Shown in pieces: positions 11,296 to 57,544 of a stretch of DNA of 64,000 nt. The stretch is from Chiloscyllium plagiosum. Lineage: Eukaryota. The first letter of the stretch is position 1. Each line of letters starts with the position of its first letter. Under the pieces are notes generated by a model. It was not told the DNA's origin and did no database searches. It saw only the letters and a list, made by a program, of their open reading frames with translations. Both the position numbers and the translations under genes were made by a program. The stretch covers positions 32,315,101 to 32,379,100 of the forward strand of contig NC_057742.1 in NCBI RefSeq assembly GCF_004010195.1, given 5' to 3'.

Positions 11296-12570
11296 AAGAT
11301 TTTGGAGTTCCACTGATTAAACATAAAGTGAGTCTCAAAGTTGACATTGTTTGCAGCTGCGTCTAATATTTGTAACAATTGTAAGATTGGACAATATTTT
11401 TATCCATTTGGACAGCAAGGACACGAAGATTACACATAAGATGCAAGAGGCATTACAACCACTGACCTGCAACCCTTGATTTTCCATTTGTTTAAAAAAA
11501 AATGAATGGACAATTACAGATAGCACAGCCGTGGATTATCAATGTACATTTCTTCTCTTGGTGATTCTAAACGTCATGAAACATATCTCTTTCTAAGACA
11601 AATTAAATAATGGAAAAGGCTCAGCAGATCTGGCAACATCTGTGGAGGAAAACATCAAGTTAATGTAGGGGTATGGTAATAGCATGGTTTGTTATTGGAC
11701 TAGTGATCCAAAAGTCTATTTATTAGCCCAAATATGTAAGTTCAAAAAACACCTTAGAAGCTGTGGCATTTAAATTTAAATGAAGCTGCATTAGCAATGA
11801 TTACCATTGTCATAAAAACCCATCCAGTTCACTAAGCTGTTCTAATACAATCTGATTTTAACATGATTCTACAGGGAGATCTTGAGGTACAAGGGGAAGG
11901 ATCTATTCCTCATACATTGGGTCTTGCACAGGCTATATGCCATGGAAAGTGTCCTCCTCCCTTCAAGTGGCTACTAATCATCAGTTGTGATTCCAGACCA
12001 TACAGATGTGGTTGACTCTTACCTATTCATATGGCATAGCCTAGGAAGCCATTCAATTGCAATGAAGAAGGCAGTTCAACCATACTTTCTCATGGCCATA
12101 AGAATGGACAATAATTTCTAATTCTGCTAGCAATGTTCACATTCTGTGAAGGTAATGACCTTATATTGGAACTCTTGAACCTATTAATTCTATTTTTTTC
12201 TCTCTACAAATGCTACCTGAACATTTATTCACCAAAATGCCTAGTAGGTGACCATTAAGGTGCCTAATAAGCACAAGGCCTGGTGAGCTTTCTGGGAGAT
12301 GGGGGAATCCTGCATGTTTTGGCATTTGGCACCACACTTAGAAAACAGATTTTAAAAAAATTCGAGTCATTAAATCTGTTTCTCATCACAGATGCTGCCT
12401 GACTTCCTGAGTATTTCCAACATTTTCTATTGTTGTCTCTGCAGCAGTTTGTTTTTGCTTTTGGCATTTCAGATTAGTAAAATACCAGTAAAGAAGTGTT
12501 TTTAGTTCTAGTTGTCAAATTAATAATACTCGCTTTTTAAAAGAACATATCAACAGCAGGATTTTATGCA

Positions 12571-15500
12571 TTATTCCAGTAGGTTTATGGCTTTTTCCAA
12601 GTTTTTCCTGCTTTCATTGCGGATCATTTCCCAGGCACATCTATTGTACCCCTATAAAGAGAACAAGAATTAATACCTAGAAGAACAAATACTATAGTCA
12701 CAGAATTAATTAACCAATGTAAAAGCTTTTAATCATTAGAAGGCTTTTTCCTGCTCAATGTAGGATAAATTATACATATACCTTATTTTGCAGAAACATT
12801 CTCAGCTTTTGGAAATATGTACGAATTCTTTTTCTCCCAAACATTTTAAAGTCTGACTGATGTTCTCCTAAATCCTGACTGAGCTCCTTCAGCTGCTGAA
12901 ACAGAAGCATTGCAAACTCCTCCAATCCATTCTTGTCCCACATACTGGAACAGGCATTTGTTCTATAAAGCTTGCTGGTGTGGCGCAATATTTGATAGAA
13001 GATCATAATTTTGTCCTCAGCCTGTATAAAATGCACAACATACTACTCAGCTAATGGTGAAAAGCTTATGAATGCATGAATGTGTTTGAGGGGAAGCTCG
13101 AAAAGCACATGAGGAAAAAGAAATAGAGGTATATGATAAATTGAGATGAAGTAAGTAGGGAAGGACCTAATATGGAAGGCAAACTTTGATATGGACCTTA
13201 ATTTTAAAAATCAAATTACTGTGGATGCTGCAAATCTGAAATAAGAACAAAATAATTTAGAAATATTCAGCAGGTCAGTTAGCATCTGTGTAGAAAAATA
13301 AAATTGATAACCAGGTCATGATTACCTTTCATCTGAACTGAAAAGCCATTTAAACCAGAAACATTAATCCTGTTTCTCTCCTCAGATGCAGTCCAACCTG
13401 CAGAATATTTCCAACACTTATTTGATTTGATTTTAGGTATCATTCAATGGCCTGTACATGATATTCATTTGTAATTTTATTGGTTAGTCACATATAAAAC
13501 CTTTTTTAAGAAAACACTTTTTTCTAAACAAAATACACTGACTTGAAGTTGCTGCTAGTTTGTACCTGTGGAGTCACATTCCATCCCATGAAGACAAAGT
13601 CCATGGAGACCCCAACAGACATGACGGCATCCCTGGAGATGTGAACAAGTCCTTCTCATCTCATAGAAGTAGAAAATGGATCATCAAAAGGAGTTAATGG
13701 CTGGGACAGTAAAAACATTGATCACCTCAGCTATAAGGCAATAGCTAAAGGGAAGCTTTATGAGATATGAAACAGTCTTCAATATCTTTTGGAACATACA
13801 ACCAAAATAGATAGAGCTATTGTGATATCACTTTTGTGTGAAAGTTTTATTCACATTTGAGCAGAGAGCACACAAGTAAACAATCTTTCTCTTTTTCTGT
13901 ACAATACACCTGTTAGGCAATGAAGCCCACCCTGCTGAGAAACAAAAGTGTGTCTATGATCTTACAGCAGACATAGTTTTTACGGAAAGCTGTTGGAGTT
14001 CTACAACACTGATTTCTAGGAGAAAGGAGGATTCGCAACCATAACTTCAAATTAACTGCTTCAGCTGATGAAATCTGTGGATGCAAACAATGAACATGTA
14101 CTGACTGTCCTTTTTATTAATCTGTATTTTAACTTGGCCAAGTTTATCCTCTATATTTTTTCCTATTCCTTACTTGGGGCCTTGGGTTCATGTTGCACTA
14201 CAGGTTACCCAACCACACAATGCACTCTCATACATAGCTGAAACATGTGTTGCTGGAAAAGCGCAGCAACGCAGGAGGCTAAGCCCTTCTCCTGCTCCTT
14301 GGATGCTGCCTGACCTGCTGCGCTTTTCCAACAACACATTTTTCAGCTCTGATATCCAGCATCTGCAGTCCTCACCTTCTCCTACTCTCATACATACACG
14401 AACACACTCATGCAAACACACTCACATAGACCTTCCTCGCTAAATAACCTGAATCTGCATTCTACAACTATACATAATATAATCTTCTGACAATTGTCAA
14501 CTCCCTACCTGCTCTAAATTTTCTTGCCCTCTTCTTCTGAAGTCACTTCCTCTTGCTAGCTACAGTTCCACAGAAACTAAAAGGTCTCTGGTGCAAAGTG
14601 ACCACTGTCAAGATGTCTGAACCTTGATGAGTGTTGACGAATAGCTGATAGGGGTGGGGTGGAGGGGAGGGGAGATGTGGGACATCATAACTCATGCAAA
14701 TCCATATATATTTTTAGCAAAGCTCAGTGGATAGCAATTTGGAGCAAGATTTGAACTTCATATTTTGCTTTCAGTTATCATTTAATGAATGGTGAAAATA
14801 GTGAGAAAATTAGGAAGATAGGCTTGCTGTGGTTCGTCAATGATTTTATGAAACAGAACAATGTAATCAATATTACATAAATTGTAAAACATTTCATTGA
14901 TTTGTAAACTTAATTTTTAAAATTGTAATTGTTCTATTAGTATTTTAAGCATCATAATGATTCAGCATCAGAGAGATAGAATAGTACTTTTACACTCTCG
15001 GGACCAAAGTTTTAATTTAGCCTAAGGTGAAAGATGAAAGTCTTCCCATTCTGTTGGTGTTAGGGCAATATTTAAAATGTTATTAAACAATCTCAACACT
15101 CTATGGTAGCTATGGCTTCAAAAGCAAAAATGTTGAATACCACAATGTGATTTTGACACAAATTGAATTATCTCACACAGAAGATTTATAAGGAGAAATG
15201 ATGTTAGGAATCAGAACTGGTGCTTAAGGAATGCTTTGATGGCATTTGATGGCACAGGCATAGTAACAGCAATCTTAATCTGCATCTAAATTAGACACTG
15301 CCCACAAATGTATTCTTTCCTTGAGTCATGGGGTTAGCTCTTGTCAGAGTTGCCTCAAACTCTGCCTTCTTATTAATTCTCTTGCCTTTTCTGTCACCTG
15401 CATTTATCACAGTGTTGAAATCACCTGCATATTAAATTACCTGGCAATACGTTGTATTGTCTCCCACTCTAACACATTCACTCCTCGGAACAATAACTAT

Positions 15501-16350
15501 AATAGTAGCAAGACTTTTCACCTTTCTTTTATCGATTAACAATTCATTCATATCTTTTCAACATTTTTATGCCCTATGTTCCAGGTCTTGCCACTTCATT
15601 TCAATTTCCTAATAATGGAAAGTTTGAAAGAATTGGTAAAATTTGATTGCAGTTACCTGCATTTCCATTATTCACTTTGGAACTCTCCTGCAACATGTTT
15701 GAAATTAAACACCTGTCAGCTTCAATGTTAATTACCTTTGCCTATTGTCTAAGGTGCAATGGCACCTTCAAAGTTGGGCTTCTGAATACATTGTCATTAT
15801 CAGAAGTGCCATCTATCACCGATCTGCTCAGATGGATGTACTGAGAACCTAAGGCACCATTTCAGAGATGAGCGAGGGAATTTGTCCTGGTATCCTGGAC
15901 AATATTTGAGCTAACATCACACTTCCTACATTACAATCTTCAGAAGCGCTTAACTGGCTGTTAATTCTTCTGGGACGCCCCTTCTATTTCTGTTTTCTCA
16001 ATCTCTGGAATGCATTCATCACAATTAAAGCAAAACGCACAGATTACCTTCGCATTTTTTCCAATCTCCGTCAGGTCAAGGCTTTTGATCTCCATCCCCT
16101 GCTTTCTACAATGAACTGGAAAGGCGCCCCCCTAAAGCAAGAGCAGAGATAGTGTTAAGACATTAGACTCCGCGTTCGGAAGTTCAACTGCATTGAATCC
16201 CATCCGTAAACTCACCATTGCATTCAATATTTCCAAAATTTCGCTGGTGAAACGCCGGTGGAGTTCCATCCTTATTGGATAGTTCTGACTCAAGGCCCCA
16301 AGCAACAGGAACAATGGAAGAACAAATTGCCAAGTGCAAGCCAACGCCAT
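12571..16350 (-). CDS. Type I interferon, 4 exons (IFN-A), 179 aa; retains only the C2-C4 pair plus one extra Cys
   Basis: Exons (minus): 16350-16216 MALACTWQFVLPLFLLLGALSQNYPIRMELHRRFTSEILEILNAM; 16131-16048 GGAFPVHCRKQGMEIKSLDLTEIGKNAK; 13021-12782 AEDKIMIFYQILRH...WDKNGLEEF...TYFQKLRMFLQNK; 12651-12571 GYNRCAWEMIRNESRKNLEKAINLLE*. All introns are GT-AG, phase 0 (84, 3026, 130 nt). Signal peptide, M|GG-FP-C, YF-L-FL and CAWE motifs are type I IFN hallmarks. Confidence 0.93.
14237..14383. mobile_element. Internally deleted palindromic Penelope-like element in IFN-A intron 2
   Basis: Arms 14245-14268 and 14316-14339; TSD ACTCTCATACATA at 14224-14236 and 14384-14396; the hammerhead core is deleted. 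Confidence 0.7.
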
Positions 16351-16544
16351 GCTCCACAGCAAATCTGACCTTTAGTGCCACAAAGTGAATAGTGTGAATA
16401 AAAAGTCCACGTTCAGTATGGAGAAAATTAACGAATAGGGTCTACCGAGTGCCTAAGCTGCTGGACATAGGCTCCGTCCTGTGACTGGACGGAATTGGCT
16501 ATCGGCCGTCAAATAAACCGTATTCTACACACACAACTGTTTAC

Positions 16545-16785
16545 ATCACAAAAATGAAAAATAGTCACATTCATTTTCTGATCTGAGAGGTAAGAAAATG
16601 ATTTCGATGAGGAAAAGTACCGTGCATGTACGTCATGTGTAATCATCGTTGGCAGAGAAAGTACCCGAACAATCAGTTTTTATTTCAGTCAGTTTAGGGC
16701 ATGTGTTGGTCTAAGCGGGACTAGTGCAAAGAGCCAAAAATATCAGGCTACCAAAATAGTGAGTGAAATTGGGACTTCCACAGCA
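16545..16785 (-). promoter_or_regulatory. IFN-A upstream region with IRF/ISRE-like and kappaB-like motifs
   Basis: GAAAATGAA (minus, 16570-16578), GGAAAAGTACC (16611-16621), GGGTACTTTCTC (minus, 16655-16666), AGTTTTTATTTC (16675-16686) and GGGACTTCC (16771-16779), all 200-430 nt upstream of the ATG. Motif match only. Confidence 0.5.
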
Positions 16786-19125
16786 GCCGGCAGCACCGTG
16801 GGGAAGACATGCAAATAATTCTACCTGACCTGTGTGGGGCATCAAACTTGGGAAATCTCTACAGCTGCCCTTGTGGTTGTGGGGCGAAAGAAGGCGGGCG
16901 AGGGATGTTTCACTGAGAAAGCTGCTTTTGGGGAGCGTTTGGGTGGGAGATTCGGGGGGGGAAATAAATAAGCCAGAAGTTTCTCTTCAATTAACGCCAC
17001 TATAGTAATGTGTGATGTAAAGCTAAACAAGGAGAAACTTATAACACTAAACAATAATCCATGCTTATGTCGGTGAATTCTCACTCATAGGTTCTGAACG
17101 AAAATTAATTTCCCAAACTAAATATGGGACAAGATAACTAAGGCCGAGGAAATAAAGGGTACTTGGACCATGGGATGAGGATGTGGGAAGGGTGAGGGGG
17201 TTCGTGGTTGATGATCAAATATGAGGTGACCATAAAGGAGTAGGCTTTGAGGCAACCAACACGTACAACTTCTGTTGAGGAGTCACACTATTCCCATGAA
17301 CCTGTTGGCTTCCTCTCAGCAACCCGGCTTTAATCACTGGCCGAACGCTTCACATTTTTTCCTCCAGCTGTCCTAGAATACGGGGGCAAAGGCGTCCCTT
17401 GAGGGAAACAGGGCAAAGAAACAATCAAAATAGGAGACAGTCCCTCAAAATAAGGCATAGTTGCTGAATGTGTTAAATGTTCTGTTCATATAGAAAGACT
17501 AGGCAGGCTGGCCTAATTGCTGAGCTCCTACATTCCTCTGGGTGGCGATGTACTATTACACTCAGAGGAACTTTACTGAAGAGAAACATCTAAGATCAAC
17601 TTAATTTCGTCATCATATAAAGATGATGGGGAAGCCCTTGAGGTGGTGTGGTAGTGTCCCTATCTCTGAGCCAGGAAGGCCAGGTTCACCTTAGCTCAGA
17701 GTTGTATCATTACATCACTGAACAGGTTAAATAGAAAATAGTTTCTTCTAAGAAAGATGTTGTGGCCATATTGGCAATACCCTACCTATATGCCAGGAGG
17801 CTCAGGTTCATGTCCTACCTGATCCAGAAGTCATAGAATTATAGAGTTTCAAAAGATAGAAGCAGGCCATTCGACCCACTTATTCCGCACCAACCCTCCA
17901 AACAGCATTCCACCCAGACCCACCCCCTACCCTATTCCTTTAACCCTGTATTTCCCATGGCTTACCTACACATCCCTGGACACTGCGGGCAATTTGGCAT
18001 GGCCAATCCACCTAACCCACACATTCTTGCCAAGACATATCTAAACAGGTTGACTATAAATAGGAGCTGTCGTGGCAGTGTCCTTACCTCTGATCTGAGT
18101 TCATGTTCCACCTGTTCTCGGGGTGTGTTATAACACATGTGAACAGGGAGATTAAAAATACCAATAAAGTTGATGGAGTTGTTGACTAGCCACAGCAGTC
18201 TTTTTTTTCCCAGATACCTACAATACACTGAAACATGGTGATATTTTGGAGCTGTAAGTCCAAAATTTATTTAGCTCCCAGCATTCTGTATTCAGCAAAT
18301 ACTATGTTTCAAATTACTATTACATTGCATGTTGAAAATTTTTTTTGGAAAAAATCCATCTCACATAAATGCAAAAAAAATCAATAGCAGCAGCTTCCTT
18401 TTAGTCACTTGTAGCCTGCTGTCAACTTGCTTCCTAAAATATAGTGTTTCACCAGATTAGTGTCATAGAGTCATAACGATGTACAGCATGGAAACAGACC
18501 CTTCGGTCCAACCTGTCCATGCCGACCAGATATCCCAACCCAATCTAGTCCCACGTGCCAGCACCCGGCCCATATCCCTCCAAACCCTTCCTATTCATAT
18601 ACTCATCCAAATGCCTCTTAAATGTTGCAATTGTACCAGCCTCCACCACTTACTCTCACAGCTCATTCCATACACCTACCACCCTCTGCATGAAAACGTT
18701 GCCCCTTAGGTCTCTTTTATATCTTTCCCCTCTCACCCTAAACATATGCCCTCTAGTTCTGGACTCCCCGACCCCAGAGAAAAGACTTTGTCGATTTATC
18801 CTATCCATGCCCCTCATAATTTTGTAAACCTCTATAAGGTCACCCCTCAGCCTCTGACGCTCCAGGGAAAACAGCCCCAGCCTATTCAACCTCTCCCTAT
18901 AGCTCAAATCCTCCAACTCTGGCACCATCCTTGTAAATCTTTTTTGAACCCTTTCAAGTTTCACAACATCTTTCCGATAGGAAGGAGACCAGAATTGCAT
19001 GCAATATTCCAACAGTAGCCTAACCAATGTCCTGTACAGCCGCAACATGACCTCCCAACTCCTATACTCAGTACTCTGACCAATAAAGGAAAGCATACCA
19101 AACACCTTCTTCACTATCCTATCTA

Positions 19126-28279: not shown

Positions 28280-28779
28280 NNNNNNNNNNNNNNNNNNNNN
28301 NNNNNNNNNNNNNNNNNNNNNNNNNNNNNNNNNNNNNNNNNNNNNNNNNNNNNNNNNNNNNNNNNNNNNNNNNNNNNNNNNNNNNNNNNNNNNNNNNNNN
28401 NNNNNNNNNNNNNNNNNNNNNNNNNNNNNNNNNNNNNNNNNNNNNNNNNNNNNNNNNNNNNNNNNNNNNNNNNNNNNNNNNNNNNNNNNNNNNNNNNNNN
28501 NNNNNNNNNNNNNNNNNNNNNNNNNNNNNNNNNNNNNNNNNNNNNNNNNNNNNNNNNNNNNNNNNNNNNNNNNNNNNNNNNNNNNNNNNNNNNNNNNNNN
28601 NNNNNNNNNNNNNNNNNNNNNNNNNNNNNNNNNNNNNNNNNNNNNNNNNNNNNNNNNNNNNNNNNNNNNNNNNNNNNNNNNNNNNNNNNNNNNNNNNNNN
28701 NNNNNNNNNNNNNNNNNNNNNNNNNNNNNNNNNNNNNNNNNNNNNNNNNNNNNNNNNNNNNNNNNNNNNNNNNNNNNNN
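28280..28779. other. Assembly gap (500 N)
   Basis: Run of N; the round number suggests a placeholder size. Confidence 1.
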
Positions 28780-34088: not shown

Positions 34089-36130
34089 TTAAGATGATCG
34101 CTTGGCCTCCCTCTGAATTCGTCCTATTATGGTTTGAATCTGCTGTAAGTAAGACATGGTGCGAGAGCGGACTCTTTCCCAGGCACAGTCACTGAATCCC
34201 TGAAAGGCAAAAATATTGAAACATGTTAGCAGGACTGCACCGAATTTTAAGGGAATACAAAAGTTGCACATTATTTGAAAGCCATACTCCAGTTTTCGCG
34301 TGAGAATATCAGCATTCATTTGATCTCAGTCATTTTTGGGCATTGCTAATATCATGATGCTGATTTTAACGTGATAATTAAATGATCAGAATTTAGATTT
34401 ACCTACAGTGTGGAAACAGGCCCTTCAGCCCAACCAGTCCACACTGACCCTCTGAAGAGTAAGGAGAAATTGAGGTCTGCAGATGCTGAAGAGTAACCCA
34501 ACCAGACCCATTTCCCTCTGACTAATGCACCTAGCACTATGGGCAATTTAGCATGGCCAATTCACCTAACCTGCACATCTTTGGACTGTGGGAGGAAACC
34601 CATGCAGACACGGGGAGAATGTACAAACTCCACCAAGACAGTCACCCGAGGCTAGAATTGAACCTGGGACTGGCTCCAGTGAGGCAGTAGTGCTAACCAC
34701 TGAGCCACGGTGCCACCCTTGAGCTACTGATATTGGAAGCCAAATTTTCTAAGGAATTTCACTAGACATTCTCAGCAGAGAAACTCTTCACTAATACATC
34801 TCTCGTCAGCCCTAGTCTGAGTAGTGACAAAGTTATGGACCTTGCTACATGGTTTGTCTACACGAACTTCACTAGATGTAAAATAGTAAAACATGAATCG
34901 CCCATACCTGTTGCGTTAGCAGCTCCCTCATCTTGCTGAAGTCCTGTTGAATTTCCTCGCTTCTAGTGGACGCTGCAGGGTCTCCCACACATCCGTTCAG
35001 ATTTGTCAGCTGCTCACTCAGATGAATCAGAAAGGTTTCCAGCCGGTCAGAGTCCCAGGGAGCAGTATTGAGGTTCTCAATGAAGATCTTGTTGATTTGA
35101 TCCAATGCTTGGTGGATAAGCAGGAGTGTGTCTTCCCCCTGTTGGACACAAAAAAATGTTACTTCGCGGAAATGTGTCACTATTCGAATTTTAAAAGAAT
35201 TATTTAGAACCTGAGAAAAATGAGCAAGGCTGGGCCATTCCGCCATTCAAGACCATCTTGAATTCCTTGTTTTTTTTCTCCATTCAGAATCTCAGATCTA
35301 CTCAAGGACGACGTGATCAGAAACCTCTGGGATGGAGAATTCCACAGATTCACCACCTTCTGAATGAAGGGATTCCTCCACATTTCAGTCCTACAAAGCC
35401 TGCTAGTTACTCCAAATTATTTGGAGGAGCTAGTGTTGGACTGGGGTGTACAAAGTTAAAATCACCCAACACCAGATTATGGTCCAACAGGTTTATTTGG
35501 AAGCACTAGCTTTTGGAGCGCTGCTCCTTCATCAGGTGGTTGTGAAGTATAAGATCATTAAGATCCAGGTCTTTTTCAATACATAATTTCAGTTACATCA
35601 TACTGTAAACTTTTGCTATAAACTCTGTGTCTTACGATCTTATACTCCACAACCACCTGATGAAGGAGCAGCGCTCCGAAAGCTAGTGCTTCCAAATAAG
35701 CCTGTTGGACTCAAACCCGGTGCTGTGTGATATTTAGCTCACTTACTCTAAGGTATAGCTTTGTGATCCAGTATTATTTTAACATTGAGAATACTGAGTA
35801 TTTTGCTAGGTACAACTCAGAATCTGTGCTGGCTACATACCTGAATATTTTCCGTGAGATCAATGAGTGAATGGCCATGGGGCATTCGTGTCATTTTCAG
35901 GCAGCGCAGACTGAGTTTTCTACCCTGCAACACGAAATTCAGAGGTTAAAAATGCCACATACACAAATCCTGGCGAGGGGAATAGATCAAGATCAGTTCA
36001 GACGCACCATTAAAGTCAGTTTGCTTTTCGTCTCAGCATTGTGGAATGCCAACTGCTCGCAGCCCAGAGTCAGGCTACAGGGCACCAAGACTAGCGCCAC
36101 CCAAAATCTCCAGATACAAGAAAGAGCCAT
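34089..36130 (-). CDS. Type I interferon, 4 exons (IFN-B), 182 aa; 4-cysteine type, divergent from the others
   Basis: Exons (minus): 36130-36008 MALSCIWRFWVALVLVPCSLTLGCEQLAFHNAETKSKLTLM; 35924-35841 GRKLSLRCLKMTRMPHGHSLIDLTENIQ; 35138-34908 GEDTLLLIHQALDQINKIF...PWDSDRLETF...LNGCV...RELLTQQ; 34199-34089 GFSDCAWERVRSRTMSYLQQIQTIIGRIQREAKRSS*. GT-AG phase-0 introns (83, 702, 708 nt). CAWE-VR motif and four conserved Cys. Confidence 0.93.
34393..34718 (-). mobile_element. SINE in IFN-B intron 3
   Basis: Same SINE family as 21940-22255. Confidence 0.85.
35420..35742. mobile_element. Palindromic Penelope-like element (second family) in IFN-B intron 2
   Basis: Inverted arms at about 35455-35556 and 35636-35739; the same family occurs at 29102-29616. 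Confidence 0.72.
35654..35688 (+). ncRNA. Minimal type I hammerhead ribozyme motif (antisense to IFN-B intron 2)
   Basis: CAC [CTGATGA 35657-35663] A GGAGC AGC GCTCC [GAAA 35678-35681] GC TA GTG; palindromic AGCT helix-III loop and stem I CAC/GTG. Confidence 0.7.
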
Positions 36131-43869: not shown

Positions 43870-44000
43870 AATTAAGCAGAAAGTGAAAAATTCCAAATGA
43901 AGAAGTCACTTTGAGAACGGAGTTGAAAGATTCCCTGAAAATACATTGTGGTTAGAAGCAAAATCAATCTGTTTTTATAACGTCAAAGGAATACCCTGGT
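43870..44000 (+). promoter_or_regulatory. IFN-C promoter: IRF element, TATA-like box, CRE half-site and kappaB-like site
   Basis: GAAAGTGAAA at 43879-43888 (PRDI-like); TATAA at 43976-43980 overlapping ACGTCA; GGAATACCC at 43988-43996. The block is conserved in the IFN-D promoter. Confidence 0.62.
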
Positions 44001-44148
44001 GTACATCTTAAAATGGGCCCAGCTCACCCAGAAGGAATATTCCTTAGGAGGGAGAAGGAGTTCAGCTCGTGTTGGTACCCGGAGCTGACGTCTGATTCAG
44101 TCCCACTCTGCAGCTTCAGATCACTGTTTTAGCATTTATTGTTTAAAT

Positions 44149-45534
44149 ATGAACTTTACCGGTGTCTGGGGACTGTGCACTTTGTTTGTCTTGTTGCCTG
44201 GAATCCTGAGCCAGGACTGCCAGAGACTGCAGTTACAGCAAGTGCTAAACAGGGATGCTCTAAAGATCCTGACGGACATGGTGAGTTAATAGAAAGATCA
44301 GTGGTACGGGCAAGACAATTCTCATCTTAAACCTGCAGTTTCTCGGGATATTCTCACTTCCAGAAATTGTTCAGGTTGGGCGTTTTGCATCATGCTATGA
44401 GGAATATCTCCTTGAGAGAATAGTCAAGTATGTATGAAAATACGAAATGAAATGTATGGAAAACAGGACGTTTTTACAGCGGAAGTGGCTGATTTAATTA
44501 GGCAGACAGTTAAATATGTGAGGTAAAATCGGGAAGCAAATTGTTCAGTGATAATGAATAGCCGTAGATGCTTTGGGGGAAACATTTCTAACTACTTGTT
44601 TGTGTTCGGAGCCGCTTCTGACACTTTCTGTCCTATTATAGGGAGGGTCCTTTCCACTGCAGTGTGTAGCAACCAGAGAATCACTGCAAATCGATCCCCT
44701 GGATCTGCACCAGCTCGTCAACCGGTCACAGGTGAGTGTGTTCCTTGTAAACCCTCAGTTCGCCCAGGTGGAATAAATGTAGGGAAATATCTCCAATCCA
44801 GCCAAAACAAGAAGTTTGGCAATGATCCCAAATGTTGGTCTGAAAGTTCAACGTATCTGTGATGAATAAACAGGCTAGAAATGTTTTGAAGTTAATTTCT
44901 TCTTTTTCGTAATTGTTGCTGTTAACTTGTCAGCCAGACACAGGATAGTGCAATAGAAAGCACCTCGGTATTAATCAGTATTGTTAAAAACAATATTGAT
45001 GATGCCTTTGTAAATTCAAACAGCCTATATATTTGCAGTTTCAAATGTCGATTGCAATAGTCAGTTACACGAGAAATGTCCTGTGTATTTTTCTCAGGCC
45101 CAGGAAAAGTTCCAGATTGTCCACCAAACCTTGCGTCACATCAGCAAGATCTACAGCAGGAGCCTGGGGTCAGTCACCTGGTCCCGGGAGAAGGTCGAAA
45201 ACTTTCGTCTTCTCCTGGAACGTCAGCTCCAGGAGTTGGAAACGTGTGTGAGAAAACCAGGAGCTGGGTCCAGGCAGAGGAGAAACTCCGCCATTCTCAA
45301 ATACTTCAAGAAACTGAACAAGTTTCTCAAACAGAAGGTGTGACAATTGATAACTGACTGGCATTCAGTTCATGTCAACCCATTTAAATCTGTTCAATTT
45401 TCTAATGGGGTTTTCTCTATGTTTGCATTTTACAGAAATTCAGTGACTGCTCCTGGGAAATAATCCGCACTGAGACCAGAGCCCGTCTACAACAGCTGCT
45501 GTTCATAACGGGACAACTGAACAAAAGCAACTAA
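44149..45534 (+). CDS. Type I interferon, 4 exons (IFN-C), 186 aa; 4-cysteine, cationic
   Basis: Exons: 44149-44280 MNFTGVWGLCTLFVLLPGILSQDCQRLQLQQVLNRDALKILTDM; 44642-44731 GGSFPLQCVATRESLQIDPLDLHQLVNRSQ; 45098-45337 AQEKFQIVHQTLRH...LETCV...KYFKKLNKFLKQK; 45436-45534 KFSDCSWEIIRTETRARLQQLLFITGQLNKSN*. GT-AG phase-0 introns (361, 366, 98 nt). CSWE variant of the CAWE motif. Confidence 0.95.
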
Positions 45535-45843
45535 GGATTTCCCATTGATACTTATTAAAATCAGGGATCGATTATTATTTAATATTTAAATATTGAAGTT
45601 TTACAGAAGTGTTGCATAGCTCGATTAAGGGAATCAAGCCAGTATAATTCTGAATGACATTTGTTCAGAGTAATCTAATTAACAACATGACCTTAATATT
45701 CAAAGCGAGGTTGATATTTATCTGGAATATGAACATATTTAAAATGCAAAATATTTGTATGTTCAAGTCGCTGAAATATGTATGTTATTTTGTAAACTAT
45801 TTATGACAAGAGATGTTGCTCAATTACACCAATTAGTAATAAA
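45535..45843 (+). promoter_or_regulatory. IFN-C 3' UTR with AU-rich elements and polyA signal
   Basis: About five ATTTA pentamers (e.g. TTATTTAATATTTAAA near 45575-45590) and AATAAA at 45838-45843. Confidence 0.7.
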
Positions 45844-47371
45844 TCTTTTGAATTTTAGCATTTTATTTTGTGGTCTTTGTTTCTACACGAGGTTCATGTC
45901 TGTTGGGAATGTTAGATGACCTGGGTGGCTGATTTGCAGTAACGCCAACAGTTTGGGCTCACTTCCCTGGCTGATGTCCCCATCAAGGACTATCCTCCTC
46001 ACCTTCTCCCCTCACCTGAAGTCTGGTGACCCTAAGTCACCGCTGTCTAATGGTAGAACCATAGGTCTGATCTATGGTAGCTTCTTCATCCTGCAGTTGG
46101 GGAGGGGATGTCGCGTAGCCCAGTATTACCTTGCAGTGCCCTTGAGCTGGGAACTTCCGGTTTCGACTCCCATCTGGAAGGAATCCTAATGACGAGATTC
46201 TAACAGCCATCGTCATAATCTTTCCAAAACTTCCCCACGAGGTGCTAAAGGAAGACGGAATATGAAGATACCATGTTAACACTGTCCTACATGACCCCTG
46301 TGAATACCTGCAGTATAAATATCAGGCACCTTTCTGAAAGAGATCTTGTTACTTTGAGTCGATGATTAGCCTACGGAAAGACTGAATCCGAATACACACA
46401 GATTGGGCATGTACACCAACGGCTCAAACGAGATCGTATTCCAATACTAAATTAGTTTAAATAAGAACGGAGAAACCTTATAACTCTTTTAAACATTTAA
46501 TCGTTATCAATCGGAACACAGTGCAGCTAAACGTGTTAGTTTACATGGTGAAGCTGTAACCTTCTTGCTTCTTTGAAATGTGTGAAGGCATACATTTGGA
46601 ACGTACATTTGGAAATGTTCATGGCTTTTTCATGCAGCCTTCCGAATCCTGATTGCCATTGACTAAATGTTACATTAGAGAGAAAAAAAAATCGAACTAT
46701 TTGCAACGCTGAAGGTAGCTGGATGCGAATTACACAAATTGCAGAGCAATGTAATGAAATCTGAGCAAATGAAACTGCCTCACTGTGTTGGAAGAATGCA
46801 AGTGTAGTCAGAACAGGCAGCACTCGCTGCCCGCTCAGCGTGCAATAACAATTTCCACACGGGAAAAGTTGTTTGAATGTGTCAAGCGAAGAGATGGCGG
46901 CTGTGAATCTCCTCTCTCCGTCACACAGTGCGGTCTCCACTCTGGAACATCAGAAATTCTGGGCAAAACGATTTACCACGTAAATAGATCCCGGCGTTGG
47001 AGTAAATCAGGGTCCGGTCAAATATATTATTTCGTTCAGAGTGCTTACAGTCTCTGTGCTTGTGAATTGCTGTAATTACATTCTCTCACAGCCCAACCTC
47101 CAGATCCGGGTTCACCTGCTACTTTTGTCATTATTGAAAGTTTTTTTCTTGTGAGTCCCTGGGATGAATTCCAGTAAGCGCATTGACTTCTTGTCAGAGC
47201 CATCCACAAAAATGGCCGAGCAGGTAATCATCAATCAGGATCCAACAAAAATTTTCAAGTGTTCATTCGTGGGTGAACAAATTTTGCATTCAAAAAAAAA
47301 TTCTTCTCGTTGGATTTACTTCTAAATGGAGGGGTCGGTTTGCTCGATTGAGAGCGAGAGAGAGAAGGTAG

Positions 47372-52459: not shown

Positions 52460-52605
52460 AATTAATCGGAAAGCGAAAAGTTTCAAATGAAGAAGTCACT
52501 ATATGAAGTTGGGTTGGGAGGAGCAGTAGTTGTAAGATTCCCTAGCACACTGCGGTTAGAAGCAAACTCGATTCGTTTTTATAACGTCAAAGGAATACCC
52601 TGGTG
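52460..52605 (+). promoter_or_regulatory. IFN-D promoter: IRF element and TATA-like box
   Basis: GAAAGCGAAA at 52469-52478; TATAA at 52580-52584 followed by CGTCAAAGGAATACCC, identical to IFN-C. Confidence 0.62.
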
Positions 52606-52758
52606 TACACCTTTAAGATGTGCGCATCTCACCCAAAAGGAATATTCCTTAAAACCCACCGGGGAAGGAGTTCACCTCGTGTTGTTACCGTTTGTGGAGC
52701 TGAAATCCAGTCCACTCCCACTCTGCAGCTTCAGATCGCTGTCTTGTATTGTTTAAAC

Positions 52759-55539
52759 ATGGGTTTTCCTGGTGTCTGGGGATTGTGCAGCTTGTTTGTC
52801 TTATTGCCCGGAATCCTGAGCCAGGACTGCCAGAGACTACAGTTACAGCAAGTGCTAAACAGGGATGCTCTAAAGATCCTGACGGACATGGTGAGTTAAT
52901 AGAAAGATCAGTGGTACGGGCAAGGCAATTCTCATCTTAAACCTGCAGTTTCTCGGGATATTCTCACTTGCAATTGTTGAGATTGGGTGCTTTTCACCAT
53001 GCTGTGTGGAATGCCTCCTTGAGAGAATAGTCACGTTGGTATAAAAATGCGAAATGAAATGTGTGGAAAAACAGGACGTTTTTATAACGAACGTGGCTGA
53101 TTTAGTTAGGAGGAGAGTTAAATACCGTGGAAGTGTGGCGCTGGAAAAGCACAGCCAGTCAGGCAGCATTGGAAGAGCAGCAGAGTTGACGTTTAGAACA
53201 AGATGGAGGTGGGGGTAATGGTGATAGGTCAGAGAGAGAGTGGAGCGGATAGGTGGTAAGGAAGATGGACAGGTAGGACAGTTCAAGAGGATGGGTGCCC
53301 AGTTGGAGCTGGGATAAGGGGAGGGGAAATTAAACTGGTGAAATCCACATTGATTCTGTGTGGTTGGAGGGTCCTAAAGCGGAAGATGAGGTGTTCTTCC
53401 TCCAGGCGTCAGGTGGCGAGAATTTGGAGGCAGGGGAGGCCCAGGACTTACATGTCCTTTGCAAGTGGGAGGGGGAGTTAAAGTGTTAGCCCACAGGGGT
53501 TGCTTAGTGCGTGTACCCCAGAGATGTTCTCTGAAACGTTCCGAAGGAAATGTGACTGTAGTAGCGGGTCTGCTTCAGGACATAAAAGCAAATTACTGCG
53601 GATGCTGGAATCTGAAACCAAAAGAGAAATTGCCGGAAAATCTCAGCAGGTCTGGCAGCATCTGTAAGGAGAGAAAAGAGCTGACGTTTCAAGTCTAACT
53701 GACACTTTGCCAAAGCTGACAAAGGGTCAATTAGACTCGAAACGTCAGCTTTTTTCTCTCCTTACAGATGCTGTCAGACCTGCTGAGATTTTCCAGCATT
53801 TTCTCTTCTGTTCCAGGACATGACTGAAGAGCTTCAGGACACAGGAGAGGAGCTGGGGGGTGCAGTGAGAGAGAGAGCGACTCACTGAGATCCTTGTAGA
53901 GGGAGGAAGAGAAATTGTTCAAATTAGGTATCCTTGGAAGAGGCTTCACAGCAATGTTATAATCAACTAGGAGAAAGTGAGGGCTGCAGGTGCTGGAGAT
54001 CAGAGTGGAAGAGTGTGGTGCTGGAAAAGCACAGTCTATCAGTCAGCATCGGAATAGCAGGAGAGTCGACGTTTCCAGCATAAGCCCTTCATCAGGAATG
54101 AAGAGGACTGAGAGATAAGGGGAGGGGGTGTCTTGAGAATGGGGTAAGGTAGCTGGCAATGCCATTGGTAGATGAGGTGGGGGTGAAGGGGGCCTGTCCA
54201 TCTTCATCCCCACCTACCTGCTCCACCCTCCTCTCTGAAATATCACATTGAAGTTGATATTTCAGAGACGAGGGTGGAGCAGCTAGGTGGGAATGAAAAT
54301 GGACAGGTCCCCTTCACCCCCACCTTCACCTACCTCTTGCATTCACAGCTATTTTCCTCCAGCCCCACCTCCTCCCATTTTTCTCTCCGTCCCCTTGGGC
54401 CACCCCTCATTCTTGATGAAGAGATTATGCGCAAAACGTTGATTCTTCTGCTCCTCGGATGATGGCTAACCGGCTATGCTTTTCCAGCAACATACACTTC
54501 GATCCTTCGGACAGTTAAATATGTGAGGTAAAATCGGGAAGCAAATTGTTCAGTGATAATGAATGGCCGTAGATGCTTTGGGGGAAACATTTCTAACTAC
54601 TTGTTTGTGTTCGGAGCCGCTTCTGACACTTTCTGTCCTATTATAGGGAGGGTCCTTTCCACTGCAGTGTGTAGCAACCAGAGAATCACTGCAAATCGAT
54701 CCCCTGGATCTGCACCAGCTCGTCAACCGGTCACAGGTGAGTGTGTTCCTTGTAAACCCTCAGTTCGCCCAGGTGGAATAAATGTAGGGAAATATCTCCA
54801 ATCCAGCCAAAACAAGAAGTTTGGCAATGATCCCAAAAGTTGGTCTGAAAGTTCAACGTGTCTGTGATGAATAAACAGGCTAGAAATGTTTTGAAGTTAA
54901 TTTCTTCTTTTTCGTAATTGTTGCTGTTAACTTGTCAGCCAGACACAGGATAGTGCAATAGAAAGCACCTCGGTATTAATCAGTATTGTTAAAAACAATA
55001 TTGATGATGCCTTTGTAAATTCAAACAGCCTATATATTTGCAGTTTCAAATGTCGATTGCAATAGTCAGTTACACGAGAAATGTCCTGTGTATTTCTCTC
55101 AGGCCCAGGAAAAGTTCCAGATTGTTCACCAAACTTTGCGTCACATCAGCAAGATCTACAGCAGGAGCCTGGGGTCAGTCACCTGGTCCCGGGAGAAGGT
55201 CGAAAACTTTCGTCTTCTCCTGGAACGTCAGCTCCAGGAGTTGGAAACGTGTGTGAGAAAACCAGGAGCTGGGTCCAGGCAGAGGAGAAACTCCGCCATT
55301 CTCAAATACTTCAAGAAACTGAACAAGTTTCTCAAACAGAAGGTGTGACAATTGATAACTGACTGGCATTCAGTTCATGTCAACCCATTTAAATCTGTTC
55401 AATTTTCTAATGGGGTTTTCTCTATGTTTGCATTTTACAGAAATTCAGTGACTGCTCCTGGGAAATAATCCGCACTGAGACCAGAGCCCGTCTACAACAG
55501 CTGCTGTTCATAACGGGACAACTGAACAAAAGCAACTAA
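52759..55539 (+). CDS. Type I interferon, 4 exons (IFN-D), 186 aa; mature protein identical to IFN-C
   Basis: Exons: 52759-52890 MGFPGVWGLCSLFVLLPGILSQDCQRLQLQQVLNRDALKILTDM; 54647-54736; 55103-55342; 55441-55539. Exons 2-4 sit exactly 10005 nt downstream of the IFN-C exons. Intron 1 is 1756 nt because of a ~1.4 kb insertion. Confidence 0.95.
53125..54512. mobile_element. Composite Penelope-like insertion (~1.39 kb) in IFN-D intron 1
   Basis: Absent from IFN-C intron 1; flanked by AGTTAAATA (53116-53124, 54513-54521); the ends are inverted copies of the GTGTTGCTGGAAAAGCACAGC motif; internal hairpin at 53623-53806. Confidence 0.75.
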
Positions 55540-55848
55540 GGATTTTCCATTGATACTTATTAAAATCAGGGATCGATTATTATTTAATATTTAAATATTG
55601 AAGTTTTACAGAAGTGTTGCATTGCTCGATTAAGGGAATCAAGCCAGTATAATTCTGAATGACATTTGTTCAGAGTAATCTAATTAACAACATGACCTTA
55701 ATATTCAAAGCGAGGTTGATATTTATCTGGAATATGAACATATTTAAAATGCAAAATATTTGTATGTTCAAGTCGCTGAAATATGTATGTTATTTTGTAA
55801 ACTATTTATGACAAGAGATGTTGCTCAATTACACCAATTAGTAATAAA
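55540..55848 (+). promoter_or_regulatory. IFN-D 3' UTR with AU-rich elements and polyA signal
   Basis: Near-identical to the IFN-C 3' UTR; AATAAA at 55843-55848. Confidence 0.7.
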
Positions 55849-57544
55849 TCTTTTGAATTTTAGCATTTTATTTTGTGGTCTTTGTTTCTACACGAGGTTC
55901 ATGTCTGTTGGGAATGTTAGATGACCTGGGTGGCTGATTTGCAGTAACGCCAACAGTTTGGGCTCACTTCCCTGGCTGATGTCCCCATCAAGGACTATCC
56001 TCCTCACCTTCTCCCCTCACCTGAAGTCTGGTGACCCTAAGTCACCGCTGTCTAATGGTAGAACCATAGGTCTGATCTATGGTAGCTTCTTCATCCTGCA
56101 GTTGGGGAGGGGATGTCGCGTAGCCCAGTATTACCTTGCAGTGCCCTTGAGCTGGGAACTTCCGGTTTCGACTCCCATCTGGAAGGAATCCTAATGACGA
56201 GATTCTAACAGCCATCGTCATAATCTTTCCAAAACTTCCCCACGAGGTGCTAAAGGAAGACGGAATATGAAGATACCATGTTAACACTGTCCTACATAGC
56301 CCCTGTGAATACCTGCAGTATAAATATCAGGCGCCTTTCTGATAATATGTTGTACCCTTGAGATTATATAATTAATTTTAATTTAAGCGTTCATATTTTT
56401 ATCCGGATACAGTGAACATCCTTCAAGTTGAAAAATGTTTGTTGTATGCCAGAGTCTCTGCATTGTGTGTATTTAACTAATTTTATTGCACTATAGTATT
56501 TATTGGCGTCAGACCTCTCAAATGTAACTTCGAAATAGATATTTTGTACTCTCTTTATGAAGTGTTTTCAAATTTTAACGTTAAGTTCCTCTCGTTTGCA
56601 TATGTATGTGTTAGTCTTTGCATGATCTTGAAATTATAATTACGTTTCATTCTTTATTTATCGATTTCCAAGTGATTTATTTGCTTTCTCTGGCCATGTT
56701 CTTTCAAGCATTGACTCCTGTCACTTTTTGGAGTGTTTCTTCCAGAGCAGGCTGTTGTCTGTATTCCACTAAATGAAATTTATCAAATTGCAGATATGGT
56801 GGTTACCGAGAGTTGTAAATGTATCATTGGTAACACGCCTTTGTGGGGGTGGGGGGTGGGGAAGGAACAGCAGAAACTCCTTTCTTGTTTATATCGCCCC
56901 TCTCCGCCCAACCTCTCACCCCCACCCCATGACTGTTTATCAGTATTCTTGCTTGAATGAGTTAGCCCATGGCAAATTTTAAAATAAAATAATTTGTGAA
57001 CGAAATTTAACATCAATTGGCCACTTCAGAGATAGAGATCTCTGCCATTCTACACAGTTACATACTGAGAATTACATTGCAAAATTTTATTGAGTGGAAT
57101 AATTATGGCTAAAGTTTGCATGAGACAAAATTATCAAATTATTTGCAAAATTAAGTAGAAATAAGTATTAAATATATTCTAAATAAATCTCAACAATTCA
57201 AACAATTAATGTAACAGTTTCATCCAAAGATTGTAAACTACAAATAAAATCAGAAAAGGTAGCTGCAGCTGGCCCTTGTATTTGGGCTCCCAGTCTGTCT
57301 AACATAAAAATACTCATGGTTAGAACAGGGAGGGGACAATGGGAAGCAGTGAATGCTAAAATTGATTTGAATAAATAATTACAAAGTCATTCATTTGCAG
57401 TGTTTTTATCCCTGAACATTCACACTTACTACAAATTGACACCAATGTGAAATGGCAGAGTTTTAGAGCCCTACTGCTCTATTACTATGTTTTAACAGCA
57501 CCTTTATTTTCACAGCACATTCTGTCAAGTTGTTAATACTAATG

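Follow-up and report, generated by a model that had tools for sequence, protein, structure and literature searches.

What becomes of a type I interferon (IFN) that has lost one of its two disulphide pairs and acquired a cysteine elsewhere? The question is raised by IFN-A, one of the four interferon genes (IFN-A to IFN-D) in the window, the whole 64,000-nucleotide stretch of shark DNA that was analysed. A first-pass annotation, made from the DNA letters and their reading frames, had proposed that this gene is intact, has lost both partners of the C1-C3 bond, keeps C2 and C4 in an independently evolved likeness to IFN-beta, and bears a free cysteine that could allow dimerisation or an alternative bond. 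Taking codons, orthologues, trees and a predicted fold together, we consider that IFN-A is an intact member of an old line of two-cysteine interferons in sharks and rays, and likely an ordinary secreted antiviral cytokine with a single Cys53-Cys158 bond and with Cys97 likely unpaired.

Gene structure and cysteine sites of IFN-A

IFN-A lies on the minus strand, where four exons encode 179 residues in an uninterrupted frame with neither stop nor frameshift; its three introns are all GT-AG and in phase 0. Exon 1 (16216..16350, minus strand, residues 1-45) is followed by a GT donor and likely carries the signal peptide and helix A. Alignment with paralogues C and D places the likely signal peptide at about residues 1-21, and the mature part of the exon shares 21 of 24 residues with the whale shark orthologue. 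Exon 2 (16048..16131, minus strand, residues 46-73) encodes the AB loop, and exon 4 (12571..12651, minus strand) the last residues, 154-179, and the stop codon. Between them, exon 3 (12782..13021, minus strand, residues 74-153) is of the fused kind that characterises the IFN1 genes of cartilaginous fish and by itself matches the interferon alpha/beta domain of Pfam (PF00143) with 46.1 bits (E=7.6e-12; cut-off 26.8), the whale shark orthologue reaching 95.7 bits.

Besides Cys5 in the signal peptide, the protein has cysteines at residues 53, 97 and 158 only, so that the mature chain holds these last three. Codon reads and the alignment agree that the C1 column is occupied by Tyr24 (TAT, 16279..16281, minus strand) and the C3 column by Asp123 (GAT, 12872..12874, minus strand), the fiftieth residue of exon 3. 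These two residues share columns with Cys24 and Cys124 in paralogue C, and in paralogue B with Cys24 and Cys119; in fact, B, C and D all have the four canonical cysteines. C2 is retained as Cys53 (16108..16110, minus strand; gene model and alignment) and C4 as Cys158 in the CAWE motif (12637..12639, minus strand; gene model). The extra cysteine announced in the motif TNACSS is a TGT codon at 12950..12952 (minus strand), read as Cys97 and placed by alignment and by the orthologue model. All five sites thus read as the first-pass annotation had described them, including its remark that TAT is one base from TGT, with the detail that in B and C the C1 codon is TGC and the C3 codon TGT, the latter two bases away from the GAT of IFN-A. 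A displaced C1 or C3 is ruled out, because Cys53, Cys97 and Cys158 are the only cysteines of the mature chain.

The same residues recur in four comparison runs, which are assembled contigs and not raw DNA reads; two (X5 and X6) carry the same organism label and come from another study, and two (X10 and X17) carry two other organism labels. X6 covers 12617-12880, including the Asp123 codon, and X5 covers 12921-13243, including the Cys97 codon, both with 0 differences. Over 15116-16500 (1385 bases) X5 shows 7 differences, and none of the 6 that are listed falls in 16279-16281. X10 and X17 each span 12420-13070 in one piece, with 12872-12874 and 12950-12952 unchanged, and Cys158 is retained in X17 despite a synonymous TGT>TGC change. 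Directly after the stop codon, at window position 12568, 13 bases present in X10 and X17 are absent from the window and from X6, a small deletion that the window's species has in its 3' untranslated region.

Over 106 codons of exons 3 and 4, dN/dS is 0.12 against X10 (2 synonymous and 1 nonsynonymous changes; p=0.10) and 0.26 against X17 (6.5 synonymous and 7.5 nonsynonymous; p=0.04), both below 1 and not near it, as the first-pass annotation had said a decaying copy would be. These counts are small, and the stronger argument for constraint is that sharks and a ray, lineages that split more than 200 million years ago, all retain an open frame.

AlphaFold2, run on the whale shark orthologue (87% identical) with an alignment of 110 rows, returned a model with a pLDDT of 89.7 and a pTM of 0.82. 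Its best Foldseek matches among PDB structures were grass carp IFNa, zebrafish IFN1 and IFN2, and mouse and human IFN-beta, and all top rows among the matches listed are type I interferons (TMq 0.70-0.76, ranks 1-9). IFN-A is accordingly predicted to form a type I interferon helical bundle.

The IFN-A clade and its missing cysteines

A word-based protein search combined with a profile yielded four further clade members, all automatically annotated database records, from a sample in which catsharks, mackerel sharks, skates and dogfish are unrepresented. The whale shark protein XP_020391693 ('interferon beta-like', 179 residues; 85% identity in exon 3, 87% overall) has Tyr, Cys, Cys, Asp and Cys at the five diagnostic sites, all as in IFN-A; the 87% identity makes a carpet shark the likely source of the window. 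The others come from the horn shark Heterodontus francisci (XP_067869159, a model with an insert that is probably mis-predicted), the sawshark Pristiophorus japonicus (a partial model of exons 3-4, without the C1 and C2 sites) and the devil ray Mobula hypostoma (XP_062893866). The C3 column is Asp in all five clade members, and the C1 column is Tyr in IFN-A, whale shark and horn shark and Phe in Mobula, that is, non-cysteine in 4/4 members covering the site. Whale shark, horn shark and devil ray hence lack both C1 and C3, and the partial sawshark protein lacks C3. Cys53 is found in 4/4 members covering its site and Cys158 in 5/5, the ray included. The first-pass annotation had proposed looking for the pattern in other sharks and rays and had held that cysteines at C1 and C3 there would speak against it; instead, the loss is common to sharks and one ray. 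Because it is shared in this way, it is old and not specific to this species.

IFN-A and its four orthologues form one clade in a 52-protein tree (100/97) and again in a 38-protein tree from which the five cysteine columns had been removed (100/99), both built from proteins hand-selected among the search matches. The AU test rejects a grouping of this clade with three mammalian IFN-beta sequences (p=4.9e-7), and with it the orthology of IFN-A and mammalian IFN-beta. If the ancestral type I interferon had four cysteines, as PMC5332411 and PMC6640115 indicate, the C2-C4-only pattern shared with IFN-beta is convergent. Mammalian IFN-beta has C2-C4 only and Tyr at C1 in 3/3 named rows, but it is intronless and sits in a separate clade. 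An aromatic residue, Tyr or Phe, would have taken the place of C1 in the IFN-A clade, as Tyr has in mammalian IFN-beta; one transition suffices to turn Cys into Tyr, and the convergence therefore calls for no particular cause.

How new is this pattern? Two-cysteine interferons of cartilaginous fish are described as keeping C2 and C4 and as having lost C1 and C3 independently of mammals, and the IFN1 genes of these animals as having lost intron 3, which leaves four exons (Secombes and Zou 2017, PMC5332411). IFN-A is like them, without C1 and C3, with C2 and C4, and with four exons and three phase-0 introns. Thus, both the presence of the C2-C4-only pattern in these fish and its separate origin were already published in 2017, in a statement that probably goes back to Zou et al. 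2014 (J Immunol). The proposal of an IFN-beta-like pattern evolved independently in an intact gene therefore holds, the gene being intact, constrained and separate from IFN-beta by the AU test, but not as a surprise. Our analysis confirms the published pattern and extends it, in that the loss of C1 and C3 marks a distinct and well-supported shark-and-ray clade, which can help in the naming of shark interferons and in asking whether cysteine class predicts receptor use beyond the teleosts. In the shark and cartilaginous-fish interferon literature that we searched, in which most subscription journals were not covered, we found no mention of this clade or of Cys97.

One of the closest published counterparts is elephant shark IFN3, which resembles IFN-A in its four predicted exons, its length (178 versus 179 residues) and its retention of C2 and C4 only, as given by a trimmed alignment row in PMC6640115 (Redmond et al. 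2019); it differs at two sites, with His where IFN-A has Cys97 and Ser in the C3 column. It is sister to the IFN-A clade in the 52-protein tree (90/62) and falls outside it in the 38-protein tree (91/73), and an AU test with the two united gives p=0.26. The loss of C1 and C3 in cartilaginous fish may, on these placements, reflect one or two events; both cysteines would have gone by the shark-ray ancestor at the latest. Two other classes were considered and rejected. Teleost group I (2C) interferons also keep one conserved pair but the opposite one, C1-C3 (PMC5127012 and PMC8980424), and membership is ruled out by Tyr24 and Asp123. Type IV interferon (IFN-upsilon) has a type I-like C-terminus, as does IFN-A, but comprises five coding exons and lies between ADARB2 and PFKP (PMC8863823); this identity is rejected on the four exons of IFN-A and on its location in a type I cluster.

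In the 38-protein alignment, which was not hand-checked, paddlefish IFNf (P0015) has C1 and Asp in the C3 column, and a caecilian protein (P0034) and P0066 have neither C1 nor C3, apparent further losses. Both trees also group IFN-B (window 34089-36130) with proteins of Pristiophorus and Heptranchias (100/98); judged by these placements, the IFN-B group is a second old shark subclade, distinct from the C/D type.

The extra cysteine at residue 97

In an alignment of 138 rows, made of the 4 window proteins and 134 homologues picked by length from 167, the Cys97 column is Cys in 4/4 shark clade proteins, from three orders, and in 0/134 other rows. Ser (41/138 rows) and Thr (27/138) are its commonest residues, and Mobula has Ser. 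The site lies four residues ahead of Trp101, a position that is Trp in 133/138 rows; it corresponds in the alignment to the leading Ser of SSAAW, a motif of IFN-tau, and echidna IFN-beta has Ser there. Extra cysteines as such are ordinary among type I interferon homologues: at least one non-canonical cysteine occurs in the mature region of 70/115 rows having C4, 32 of them at one near-C-terminal site, a count in which the four shark rows are included and to which mis-predicted models or canonical cysteines out of alignment may contribute. Some fish interferons likewise have extra cysteines at non-conserved positions, which are judged likely unbonded in PMC5127012.

We therefore regard Cys97 as probably an unpaired and near-isosteric replacement of Ser. 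After cleavage of the signal peptide near residue 21, a Cys53-Cys158 bond would fasten the AB loop onto the final helix, like Cys31-Cys141 of human IFN-beta, and the N-terminus would be freed from the helix that bears C3; the cytokine could then signal via shark homologues of IFNAR1 and IFNAR2 and induce interferon-stimulated genes. Cys97 would most simply have been gained in the shark stem, by a near-isosteric swap for the usual Ser or Thr, or it may have been gained in the shark-ray ancestor and then lost in the ray. In Mobula both C2 and C4 are present while this site is Ser, so the clade folds without Cys97. A free cysteine beside the single bond is also found in human IFN-beta (Cys17 alongside Cys31-Cys141; PMC7242330). 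Cys97 and Cys17 differ in position, Cys97 being mid-chain and Cys17 elsewhere, near the N-terminus. Cys17 sits in helix A.

Could Cys97 nevertheless do something in sharks? It might form a covalent homodimer or undergo a regulated thiol modification that alters stability or receptor use, a reading that we hold to be unlikely. Its presence in every shark clade member across the three orders and in no other row is what speaks for it, together with the unchanged codon in X10 and X17 and the position of the residue in a loop: in the whale shark orthologue model, residue 97 falls in a one-turn helix (96-98) within the short loop between helices 74-92 and 103-129. Retention of the cysteine by all four sharks, whose exon 3 is otherwise 59-85% identical to IFN-A, in a column that varies across the family hints at selection on Cys97. 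Its neighbours are conserved too, however, with RTN preceding the site in 5/5 clade members, so that the cysteine may just occupy a constrained segment, and the ray has Ser. In human IFN-beta, moreover, the free cysteine leads to mispairing and instability, and the Cys17Ser form is more stable (PMC7242330). A bolder version would make IFN-A an ancient single-copy analogue of IFN-beta beside fast-duplicating four-cysteine genes, convergent down to the Tyr at C1, in which a selected shark cysteine yields a covalently dimerising or redox-switched interferon; we rate it as slightly more doubtful still. In the literature examined, we found no report of a native type I interferon that dimerises covalently or forms an alternative bond, and the search returned nothing relevant on a structural role for the Ser72-equivalent site and nothing usable on unpaired cysteines in IFN-alpha. 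The shark-wide Cys97 is thus a small new detail, which would become weightier only if such a dimer or such a bond proved real.

The alternative bond that the first-pass annotation had envisaged would join Cys97 to Cys158 or Cys53 within the chain and leave the other free, or have the three cysteines exchange. Up-up-down-down topology would put the residue-97 loop at the C2-C4 end of the bundle, and human IFN-beta shows minor Cys17-141 and Cys17-31 mispairs (PMC7242330). Against this, Cys53 and Cys158 persist in every clade member covering them, even in the ray, which lacks Cys97, as expected of mutual partners, and such a bond appears to us less probable again than a functional thiol. As for a decaying gene copy or codons that are assembly errors, we found no supporting evidence, and this reading, having next to no chance of being right, is rejected on the same residues in independent contigs and named orthologues, the open frame and the dN/dS values.

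The interferon cluster around IFN-A

IFN-A sits in the middle of a cluster of at least 8 type I interferon loci, in both orientations, at 32.24-32.37 Mb of its contig (C33), made up of the window and loci L002, L005, L006 and L008. A growth hormone/prolactin-family exon at 31.97 Mb on the same contig fits the growth-hormone-linked type I locus of fish. When the shark's own genome was searched with exon 3, 10 matches came back; besides IFN-A these were 9 paralogues of 35-41% identity, all nine with C3, and IFN-A appears, on this search, to be single copy. Three exon-3 matches (L003, L004 and L007) fall on small contigs. Genes of the four-cysteine type at L006 1501-1923, L007 435-857 and L008 1333-1746 have an extra exon 3 cysteine of their own (ENFCLLL), and the L007 copy has a TAA stop within exon 3.

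A plain pattern scan of 16351-17350, which is the 1 kb directly upstream of the start codon of IFN-A, found no perfect GAAANNGAAA element; a near match to it lies 228 bases upstream of that codon. C and D have perfect elements at -270 and -290, and IFN-A may, judging by these upstream sequences, be regulated differently from them. This absence counts against our reading, in which virus-induced expression of IFN-A is assumed. No reads from IFN-A exons were found in about 2% and about 6% of two single-cell RNA runs with the same species label, an uninformative sample for an inducible cytokine.

Over 1833 bp that cover exons 2-4 and flanks, IFN-C and IFN-D share 99.4% identity (44505-46337 versus 54510-56342), but their promoter and exon 1 are only 84.9% identical over 608 bp (43921-44516 versus 52528-53124). 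Their mature proteins are identical, and the pair looks like the product of gene conversion or of a patchwork duplication that would leave two promoters in charge of one protein. A stretch of 500 N (28280-28779) separates IFN-A from IFN-B, and most long reading frames of the window are, by eye, retrotransposon-like fragments.
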